From contig CAYRPF010000021.1 of NCBI GenBank assembly GCA_964426185.1, positions 8,777-40,776 of the forward strand: 32,000 nucleotides of DNA. Direction: 5' to 3'. Both the position numbers and the translations under genes were made by a program. This document shows, in pieces, positions 5,306-7,724 of this stretch (the first letter of the stretch is position 1; every line of letters begins with the position of its first letter). Below the pieces are notes generated by a model. It saw only the letters and a list, made by a program, of their open reading frames with translations, was not told the origin of the DNA and ran no database searches. Source of the DNA: an uncultured archaeon (GTDB lineage Archaea; Asgardarchaeota; Lokiarchaeia; Sigyniarchaeales; Promethearchaeaceae).

Positions 5306-6313
5306 TTATGCTGAAGGAATTTTCTTTAATTCTCGTTTCTTATCTGATTTTTCCTTTTTTTCGGCTTTTTCTTTGGATGATTTTTTATTTGTATTTTTTT
5401 TTTTTTGGTAAATTTCAATTCCTTGTACTTGATTATTCTTGCAGTAAATCCGGAGCAAATTTGATGCAATATCAATATTTCCATCAGGTATATTTTCCAT
5501 TTTTGACCATTTGATTTCTTCCACTTCCTTGCCGAATAACATAGAAATCATCCGTTTTGGTGAATAAACTGAATTTCCGATAATGATATTCATTCGATTC
5601 AGATTTTCTGGAGGCTGTGTTTCTAATATCAAATCCAAAATTTCATTTTCAATTTCTTTATTCAAATTGGGAGATTCATGTTTTTTCGAGAAATAAGATG
5701 GACTGTGTGATTTTCGTTTCGGAATTGGATTTGAGATGATGGTTTTCTCTTTACGATGGGATGTTTTTTTCGTAGAGCCATCTGATTCACTAGATCCTTG
5801 GAATGCTGCTTTCTTCATCTTTTCCATTTCTTTTAGGTGCTTCTGTTCTTCCAATAGTGGGCTCCAATATTCTTGTTCTTCTTTCTTTTTTGATTTAGTT
5901 CCTTTAAGCAATTCTTCTTCTTCGAGTTTTCGTCTTTCTTCATTTCGTAAGTAATACATATCTTCTGGCTTTTCATTTTCTGATACTTCATAAGATTGAA
6001 GATTAAATGCACGTAAAAACTCTAATGGTTCATCACCAGCATCTACACTCACAATCTTTAGATGTCTACCGAATTTTGCTGATTCTTCTTGTATTTTTGA
6101 TCCAACTCGAGAACTAATAAATCTTTTACGAACAGGTGATCTTGGACCTTTCCAGATAAAAATACGTCGGATATCATAGCGAACTAATAGAAATACTCCT
6201 TCACTAGTGAATAAATCCTTAACATCTTCAATAGAAATGTCAATTTCTTCGCTATCTCCTTCATTCGTTAGCTGGAAAGCACGGAATTCTTTATATTCTT
6301 GATCTAATGACAT
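5306..6313 (-). CDS. Gelsolin/villin-like domain protein with charged linker and unknown C-terminal domain
   Basis: N-terminal ~105 aa: LFTSEGVFLLV...RIFIWKGPRSP...SVDAGDEPLEFLRAF matches the gelsolin repeat consensus (L.s.dvFiLd...ifvW.G..s....v.qG.Ep..F...F). Confidence 0.8.
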   Translation of the reverse strand: MSLDQEYKEFRAFQLTNEGDSEEIDISIEDVKDLFTSEGVFLLVRYDIRRIFIWKGPRSPVRKRFISSRVGSKIQEESAKFGRHLKIVSVDAGDEPLEFLRAFNLQSYEVSENEKPEDMYYLRNEERRKLEEEELLKGTKSKKKEEQEYWSPLLEEQKHLKEMEKMKKAAFQGSSESDGSTKKTSHRKEKTIISNPIPKRKSHSPSYFSKKHESPNLNKEIENEILDLILETQPPENLNRMNIIIGNSVYSPKRMISMLFGKEVEEIKWSKMENIPDGNIDIASNLLRIYCKNNQVQGIEIYQKKKNTNKKSSKEKAEKKEKSDKKRELKKIPSA

Positions 6314-6438: not shown

Positions 6439-7017
6439 TTAACATATTTTTTGAAAGATTGAATTAAAAATGGTATAATCATCATCAGAAAATAAGCAAA
6501 CCCGCACATCTAAAAATTTTGTTGAATTTTTCAGAAATTTGATTAATTCGGAAAGAATAACTTTTGCTGCTCTTTCTTTAGGAAAGCCAAAAATTCCTGT
6601 TGATATTGCAGGGAATGCAATCGATGTGAGATTTAATTCAACCAATTTATTACTGCTCTGAGTAATTGTGGACCTGAGTAATTCATCTGCTTTTTTAGGA
6701 GAATACATATGGAACTGTGGACCTACAGCATGAAAGATATATTTTACTTGTTTAATATTTCCAGCTGAGGTAATGGCAATTCTTCCCACTGGGGTATATC
6801 CAATCCTATTGCACTCTTCTTGGATACCAAGGCCGCCTTTACGACGAATGGCTCCTGCTACTCCAGTACCTAAAATCAATTGTTCATTAGCTGCGTTTAC
6901 TAAAACATCAACAATCTGATTTGTAATATCCCCTTGAATCAACGTTAGTTTCGATTTATTTGGGTTTTCTGAAAAAATGAATTGGTTTGATTTTTCTTCT
7001 TTCATCATTCCACACAT
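6439..7017 (-). CDS. Macro domain protein (MacroD/YmdB type ADP-ribose hydrolase)
   Basis: QGDIT, VNAAN, GTGVAGAI, HAVGP, SIAFPAISTGIFGFP. Start may be 7008 or 7005. Confidence 0.93.
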   Translation of the reverse strand: MCGMMKEEKSNQFIFSENPNKSKLTLIQGDITNQIVDVLVNAANEQLILGTGVAGAIRRKGGLGIQEECNRIGYTPVGRIAITSAGNIKQVKYIFHAVGPQFHMYSPKKADELLRSTITQSSNKLVELNLTSIAFPAISTGIFGFPKERAAKVILSELIKFLKNSTKFLDVRVCLFSDDDYTIFNSIFQKIC

Positions 7018-7019
7018 TC

Positions 7020-7724
7020 TTACTTAATAATTGAGAAACCATTATCTAGTTGAATTTTCTGTCTTTTGTTAATTTCTTGTAAAATTGGATTTGAACGGGG
7101 TAAATTATTTTCTATTAACAATCGTTCTTGAAGATGGGATTCATAAATTAAACGCTCCCTTTCAAATTCCTCCAATTTTTCCCCTTTTCCAAAACGATAT
7201 GCCAATTCAATTGTCGGATCTCGATAATATCCGTAGACTTTTTGGAGTGCTTCAAAAGAATATTGCTTATTTTTACAATACAAAAAATATTTTTGGGCAA
7301 TCGGGGGGAGTTGTTCCAATAAAAAAGAATCTTTGGTTATTAGTCTAATAATAAATGGCATATATTCATGTTTTTTAGCATTAATCTCATGAAATTTGGA
7401 ATTATTCAATTTTTTATGAGAAACTAGATCGAATTTTGTGGCAAGAATGAGGCATTTAAACCATGTATAAGGTAAAATAAAAAGATATAATCTTAGAAAG
7501 AATATATCTACACTGTAAAAACGCCTAATACTAAAGATTATAAATTTAATTAACGAAAATCCTCCAACAAGAAAAATTGATAACAACCATAAAGGAATTT
7601 TGATATATCCAAATGAGTTTTTCAAATCGTTTATAATGAAGAATAATAGAATAATTAGAAATATATTAATTAGATTTGAGAAGAAATTTTGCTTGATTCG
7701 TTCTTTTATATAAATTATTCTCAC
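7020..7724 (-). CDS. Hypothetical membrane protein
   Basis: 234-aa ORF with GTG start preceded by GGAGA, 2-3 N-terminal hydrophobic segments and a soluble helical C-terminus; ends 2 nt before the macrodomain ORF. Confidence 0.65.
   Translation of the reverse strand: MRIIYIKERIKQNFFSNLINIFLIILLFFIINDLKNSFGYIKIPLWLLSIFLVGGFSLIKFIIFSIRRFYSVDIFFLRLYLFILPYTWFKCLILATKFDLVSHKKLNNSKFHEINAKKHEYMPFIIRLITKDSFLLEQLPPIAQKYFLYCKNKQYSFEALQKVYGYYRDPTIELAYRFGKGEKLEEFERERLIYESHLQERLLIENNLPRSNPILQEINKRQKIQLDNGFSIIK

Follow-up and report, generated by a model that had tools for sequence, protein, structure and literature searches.

A Lokiarchaeal Gel-X protein combining a gelsolin domain, a predicted folded domain X and a conserved C-terminal peptide

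What does a protein with a single gelsolin domain do in an Asgard archaeon, and which of its parts would act on actin? The question is raised by a gene in a 32,000-nucleotide (nt) stretch of contig CAYRPF010000021.1 from an uncultured lokiarchaeon (the window, in whose positions all coordinates are given). The gene occupies positions 5306..6313 of the minus strand, with the stop codon at 5306-5308, and encodes 335 amino acids (aa). The encoded protein is a Loki member of the published 1DGelX/GelX class of Asgard actin regulators, in which one gelsolin domain is combined with one non-gelsolin domain, domain X. Two features are new. Domain X is predicted to be a well-folded, Asgard-wide and precisely bounded domain of 88 residues, and the Loki orthologue group ends in what is, by its alignment, a near-invariant C-terminal peptide. 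We consider it fairly probable that the gene represents the Loki orthologue group of pan-Asgard 1DGelX/GelX actin regulators, in which the core made of both domains (Gel-X) acts on actin and the tail localises or gates it.

The N-terminus of the open reading frame (ORF) lines up in the alignment with the start positions of its homologues. At E<=1e-3, 430 homologues were found, all in Lokiarchaeia/Promethearchaeota, and species-representative genomes contain 181 related loci; because of these numbers, the sequences indicate that the gene is real and under selection. The nearest named relative is that of Candidatus (Ca.) Harpocratesius repetitus (72%), and orthologues are present in Lokiarchaeum ossiferum (UYP44381.1, 56% identity to the window protein) and Promethearchaeum syntrophicum MK-D1 (DSAG12_02979, 49% identity). 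A full-text literature search with the orthologue accessions found no mention of them. The full-length AlphaFold2 (AF2) model, built on 38 homologues, consists of a beta/alpha domain (aa 10-103), two helices (124-140 and 152-171) and a second domain (219-304). An earlier note on this DNA had proposed a gelsolin repeat, a charged and Ser/Lys-rich linker, an alpha/beta domain and a tail, and the model agrees with this layout almost residue for residue.

The N-terminal domain (5999..6295, minus strand; aa 7-105) has a genuine gelsolin fold, as the earlier note had supposed. It was modelled with a predicted local distance difference test (pLDDT) score of about 90, and the order of strands and helices over aa 10-103 matches the mixed beta-sheet between a long and a short helix. 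When the domain was compared with the Protein Data Bank (PDB) by Foldseek, the top 50 matches were all members of the gelsolin family, and the best of them was ProGel of Thorarchaeota bound to actin (7c2f_B; E 3e-6, template modelling score (TM) 0.88, root-mean-square deviation 2.0 Å). The family profile also matched PDB sequences, namely villin (3e-18), Thor 2DGel3 (2e-16), ProGel (1e-15, end to end) and Loki 2DGel (8e-15). The invariant residues of the domain are W54-K55-G56, R62, F65, I66, E95 and F99. A D...W-x-G ('DWG') motif separates the gelsolin from the cofilin fold (10.1101/768580). In 32 family members, W54 and G56 are invariant and position 47, that of the Asp, is D in 17/32 and E in 7/32.

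In profile alignments, the Glu found at the start of the long helix in Ca2+-binding domains (VDEKF, AREKF, PKERK) aligns with K63 of the invariant VRKRF. This Glu we take, from established structural knowledge of gelsolins, to be the type-2 Ca2+-site residue. Position 63 is K, Q or S in 32/32 family members and never acidic. We infer that the gelsolin domain would be Ca-independent, since the Glu of the Ca2+ site is replaced by K63, as in Ca-free ProGel, which also has Lys at this position.

Domain X (5402..5665, minus strand; aa 217-304) consists of a single helix and, after it, a beta meander of five strands. Within the full-length model it spans aa 219-304 with pLDDT 85-90. When modelled alone from an alignment of 118 sequences, it reached pLDDT 95.4 and a predicted TM (pTM) of 0.83, with a helix of 13 residues before the five-stranded meander; the separate folded second domain postulated in the earlier note is thus borne out by prediction. 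A profile of the same 118 sequences detected domain X in 186/201 genomes of the phylum (85/88 among the high-quality ones), with 3-6 copies per genome in the order of the window's organism and 1-2 elsewhere. Neither a Pfam family nor a sequence relative in the PDB was found for it. The idea that X is a cryptic second gelsolin domain was ruled out by an hhalign probability of 0.3% and a different strand order. Domain X appears to occur only together with a gelsolin domain, because the database entries with X only are N-terminally truncated fragments and no longer fused forms of Gel-X were found, the latter being weak evidence. In about 29 tail-bearing proteins X is duplicated in tandem (for example P0044, P0047, P0057, P0076, P0083, P0086, P0093, P0108 and P0120), and these forms group together on the tree (2 changes). 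Previous descriptions of X differ from this picture. The I-TASSER model of Thor X was a coiled coil, the Thor protein resisted crystallisation and X on its own could not be made (PMC7444086), and the L. ossiferum papers call X disordered or of unknown function (10.1101/2025.11.30.690169; PMC13716822).

The earlier note had held that this architecture could not be matched to characterised Asgard gelsolins. It corresponds to a published class: Akil et al. (2020, PNAS, PMC7444086) described 1DGelX proteins as a single gelsolin domain plus domain X, with similar architectures in Lokiarchaeota, and Loki members have already been counted, with two in MK-D1 and three in Loki GC14_75 (Akil et al. 2022, PMC9433394). 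The window protein has exactly these two domains. The broader assignment of the earlier note to an Asgard actin-regulator family holds. Thor 1DGelX binds rabbit actin with a dissociation constant of 7.7 uM, compared with 337 uM for ProGel; at low ratios it acts as a nucleator, at 1:1 it sequesters, and its severing is independent of Ca2+ (PMC7444086). In L. ossiferum, a 2025 preprint and a 2026 Nature paper on crawling motility in Asgard archaea report nine gelsolin-homology proteins, five of them enriched in Lokiactin co-immunoprecipitation (PMC13716822). One of these, B35_GelX, was recovered together with Lokiactin and groups with Thor GelX (10.1101/2025.11.30.690169).

The published Thor architecture and the window protein can be connected through genomes. 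The largest non-Loki family of domain X (f7) belongs to Thorarchaeota according to the NCBI names of two member proteins. Five Thor genomes (97-99% complete) contain gelsolin genes of ProGel size (frames of 91-114 aa) and of 2DGel size (199-222 aa, two matches), and each contains exactly one gelsolin gene with a frame of 326-344 aa, which carries domain X (E 1e-13 to 1e-15 with the hidden Markov model (HMM)). Because the sole Thor gene with a gelsolin domain and an extension carries the same X, the published Thor protein and the window protein share both domains. P0170 was dropped as a Thor anchor; its submitter label reads "Thorarchaeota", but its nearest genomes belong to another family at 42% identity.

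Compared with its closest known systems, the window protein shows both common and distinct features. Like Thor 1DGelX, it has an N-terminal gelsolin domain without the Ca2+-site residues, a long linker, a homologous domain X and a similar size (315-340 aa). The Thor protein has a Pro-rich linker, an amphipathic helix after X and a KKKLVAK end, whereas the window protein has charged helices with DMxYxRN and EYWSP motifs and a polybasic R-x-L-x-x-I-P tail; the biochemistry belongs to the Thor protein only. B35_GelX is likewise Lokiarchaeal and has a gelsolin-homology domain that an extensive linker connects to domain X. Thor ProGel and the Asgard 2DGels (PDB 7C2F, 7C2G/H, 7WHF/G) share the gelsolin-homology fold, and ProGel, the best structural match, also shares the Lys at the type-2 position. 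However, X and the tail are missing from both: ProGel is the bare domain, and the 2DGels have Ca2+ sites and a pair of gelsolin domains joined by a WH2-like LRRV/LKDV linker.

By analogy with Thor 1DGelX, the window protein is most likely a Ca-independent factor that severs or nucleates Lokiactin, with the Loki-specific tail as a targeting or regulatory peptide. The gelsolin domain would bind the cleft between Lokiactin subdomains 1 and 3, and binding would proceed without Ca2+ control, with K63 at the place of the type-2 Glu as in ProGel. The tethered domain X would give a second contact, most likely at the side of the filament, by which a weak binder of monomers or ends would become a nucleator and severer, as in the Thor protein. 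Since the C-terminal module is interchangeable between lineages, the most likely role of the tail is to localise or gate the Gel-X core; it would bind a reader and/or a polyanionic surface and is probably not the primary actin-binding site.

The tail begins with a polybasic low-complexity stretch (5339..5401, minus strand; aa 305-325; pLDDT about 40), which includes the non-conserved KKEK, and ends in the linear motif K326-R-E-L329-K-K-I332-P333-S-A335 (5309..5338, minus strand), which is conserved across homologues. Tail statistics were obtained from 135 tail-bearing homologues. Their consensus reads [KR]-R-x-L-[P/K/N]-x-I/V-P-[S/T/K]-[G/A/N], followed by 0-2 Asp/Glu/Asn and the C-terminus, with R in 126/135 and I in 125/135, and with P (82), K (32) or N (16) after the Leu. 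In all 135 the motif stands 2-4 residues from the C-terminus, and the 30 aa before it contain on average 31% K+R and 14% D+E. Among 38 diverse sequences, L329 and P333 never vary and I332 hardly does, and the surrounding Lys-rich region is unalignable. Of the complete orthologues in species-representative genomes, 76/77 carry the motif, and on the tree of the Gel and X domains it is clustered (9 changes vs about 44 in label shuffles, for the tail group with a single X). These alignments indicate that the tail is conserved far beyond chance, and this part of the earlier note's claim on the tail stands.

In the proteome of its own organism, the window protein is the only one of 3114 ORFs with the tail motif, and shuffles give an expectation of about 0. 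A docking signal common to the proteome was therefore ruled out, as no other ORF ends with the motif. It follows from this uniqueness that a reader would either be dedicated to the family or itself belong to the actin/Gel-X system. Class I SH3 ligands follow the consensus +xPhiPxPhiP, and the majority form of the tail, R-x-L-P-x-I-P, is an exact instance of it in 82/135 homologues. The window protein reads R-E-L-K-K-I-P, in which the first Pro of this consensus is missing, and K or N stands at that position in its nearest relatives, those of L. ossiferum and MK-D1 among them. The searchable text of the two L. ossiferum papers (10.1101/2025.11.30.690169; PMC13716822) contains no mention of the C-terminal motif.

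In the cross-lineage alignment the Gel-X core is conserved and the C-termini are exchangeable, and only one Loki subfamily carries the R-x-L-x-x-I-P tail. The same core recurs in Odin and Hodarchaeota, and the C-terminus of Thor, Odin and Hod proteins is an amphipathic helix (L.DLI.FFK) with a basic end. The Thor Gel-X proteins that were looked at (L127-L131; for example L131:934-1905:+, which is P0274) all end in ...K-K-K-L-V-A-K after an amphipathic helix E-M-K-E-R-L-x-D-L-I-x-F-F-K; KKKLVAK is a different and equally conserved terminal peptide on the branch that has been studied biochemically. Some Loki Gel-X paralogues end in a nucleic-acid-binding module of the HeH/SAP/Rho_N type. In P0140, for example, HeH (41 bits) and SAP (39 bits) both exceed the Pfam cut-offs, and the subfamily with such ends includes P0140, P0142, P0144, P0156, P0158, P0161-P0163 and P0168. 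In P0094, P0098 and P0102, the HeH module lies between domain X and an R-x-L-P-K-I-P tail. HeH/SAP modules on Gel-X may link actin regulation to DNA or RNA.

Between the two domains, the linker contains two further elements of the subfamily. A D-M-x-Y-x-R-N segment with a charged helix (5894..5962, minus strand; aa 118-140; helix 124-140 with pLDDT 63-67) has D118, Y121 and N124 invariant within the Loki subfamily and is absent from Thor, Odin and Hod relatives in the cross-lineage alignment. An E-Y-[W/Y/F]-S-P-x-L-E-E motif marks the start of the second helix (5801..5872, minus strand; aa 148-171; helix 152-171 with pLDDT about 72); it was found in 122 homologues, is specific to the subfamily, and Y149, S151 and L154 are invariant in it. 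The remaining disordered Ser/Lys-rich linker (5666..5800, minus strand; aa 172-216; pLDDT <50) is unalignable and varies in length, and the spacing from the gelsolin domain to X has a median of 100 aa (range 65-154).

Different explanations of how these parts work together have to be weighed. The tail itself could be a second actin site, with LKKI as a WH2-like and KKEK as a villin-headpiece-like element, so that the protein bridges two actins and bundles or tethers filaments, as the earlier note had proposed. The strong conservation of the tail and the WH2-like LRRV/LKDV between the domains of 2DGels speak for this, and polybasic stretches are generally known to be able to bind acidic F-actin. 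We nevertheless regard it as quite improbable, because the conserved features of the tail are not those of the two actin motifs. KKEK occurs in 6/135 homologues, the region around it has no headpiece fold (pLDDT <50 at aa 309-321) and no Pfam match to VHP; judging from its distribution, KKEK arose by chance in a sequence rich in Lys and Glu. The L[KR][KR][TVI] type occurs in 14/135, and the pattern that is conserved is R-x-L-[P/K/N]-x-I-P, most often with L-P-K-I-P. The amphipathic helix that precedes the motif in WH2 domains is absent as well, since hydrophobic residues are scarce in the 20 residues upstream: positions -22 to -3 contain a mean of 1.8 of them, 39/135 homologues have none, and the window protein has none except Ala. 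The likeness to WH2 and villin headpiece is thus limited to literal strings in the window sequence. In addition, the tail is limited to one Loki subfamily, and the Thor protein that severs actin has another C-terminus. A two-site actin regulator is still plausible, and the Thor 1DGelX biochemistry suggests domain X, rather than the tail, as the better candidate for the second site.

The terminal peptide could also act inside the protein, as a latch on the gelsolin domain or X that is released by a signal, with a logic like that of the C-terminal latch helix of eukaryotic gelsolin and in place of Ca2+ control. A motif unique to the family in the proteome could have the protein itself as its reader; the motif keeps a fixed distance to the C-terminus and is joined to X by a flexible spacer (median 33 aa), and in the full-length model the AF2 confidence climbs from about 40 to 60-64 over the last 15 residues. 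A pLDDT of 60-64 is still low, however, and the co-occurrence of the tail with the subfamily-specific YSP and DMxYxRN motifs in the same protein, which would also fit a latch, is confounded by common descent. We hold such a latch to be rather unlikely. A role outside the actin system, in which the gelsolin-like domain is not used for actin, as in Sec23/Sec24, and X and the tail function in another process, we judge highly improbable. In structure and sequence the domain is closest to actin-bound Asgard ProGel and 2DGel, to villin and to gelsolin, not to Sec23/24; binding, nucleation and severing of actin by Thor 1DGelX were shown in vitro (PMC7444086); and a GelX co-immunoprecipitates with Lokiactin (10.1101/2025.11.30.690169). 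What makes such a role conceivable is that actin binding of the window protein is inferred from relatives, that some paralogues carry HeH/SAP nucleic-acid-binding modules, and that GFP-1DGelX in human cells was weakly associated with filaments and concentrated at the nuclear-envelope/ER region (PMC7444086).

Several points weigh against the reading that we prefer, a Gel-X core acting on actin with a tail that localises or gates it. Actin binding is assigned by analogy, for domain X and the tail as much as for the whole window protein, and the link to the characterised Thor 1DGelX depends on the architecture census of Thor genomes. B35_GelX could be UYP44381.1 or another Gel-X paralogue of L. 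ossiferum. No structural relative of domain X points to filament binding; the Foldseek comparison of the second domain, which had been suggested in the earlier note, returned nothing at E<=1e-3. The HMM search suggested there for the gelsolin domain also came back empty, since the Pfam scan of the window protein gave no match even at E<=10 and PF00626 stayed below threshold on it. The same model scored 17.8-24.8 bits on homologues against a cut-off of 21, which P0093 passes, and the miss is a detection limit and not a structural criterion. Finally, a search for a tail reader in the organism's own genome (92% complete) found no SH3_1, SH3_2, SH3_9, WW or WH1 domain, though short divergent domains are easily missed.

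That genome contains four Gel-X genes, of which the window gene alone has the tail. The three paralogues with a gelsolin domain and domain X (C4:22958-23221, L006; C20:26472-26726, L007; C70:8392-8649, L008) encode 253-279 aa and have neither the YSP motif nor the R-x-L-x-x-I-P tail, and one of them stops right after domain X. A Lokiactin gene is present (432 bits). At C5:73220-74776 on the minus strand (L003/L004), an open frame of 553 aa, far longer than Lokiactin, matches the actin family with 214 bits and may encode an extended actin-related protein, and a third actin-family gene is located at C35:27724-28815. The sole profilin-like match of the genome (C13:19314-19664, minus strand, L009; 23.3 bits) is slightly below the Pfam cut-off, and the open frame of 223 aa that contains it exceeds a plain profilin in length.

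Directly upstream of the window gene and on the same strand lies a Macro-domain gene (6439-7017, minus strand; PF01661, 119 bits). The two genes are adjacent in 6/72 orthologous loci, all from close relatives including L. ossiferum, MK-D1 and Harpocratesius; a functional link was ruled out on this basis, and the adjacency is regarded as local synteny. A further ORF of 234 aa (7020-7724, minus strand), with several hydrophobic helices and without a Pfam match, occupies the place of a LOR-family (PF04525) gene in L. ossiferum and MK-D1.

In conclusion, domain X of 1DGelX can now be defined as a confidently predicted domain of 88 residues that is near-universal in Asgard archaea and apparently always coupled to gelsolin. 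A bolder proposal, unlikely at present, is that X is an Asgard-wide actin-filament-binding fold that empowers a single gelsolin domain to sever and nucleate, and that the Loki tail, whose majority form has the class I SH3-ligand pattern, is a short linear motif recruiting this severing factor to a dedicated reader. If this were true, motif-based wiring of the actin cytoskeleton would predate eukaryotes. Since orthologues are present in both cultured Lokiarchaeia, L. ossiferum and P. syntrophicum MK-D1, the function of X and of the tail is experimentally approachable, and its study could reveal how Asgard cells localise actin severing.

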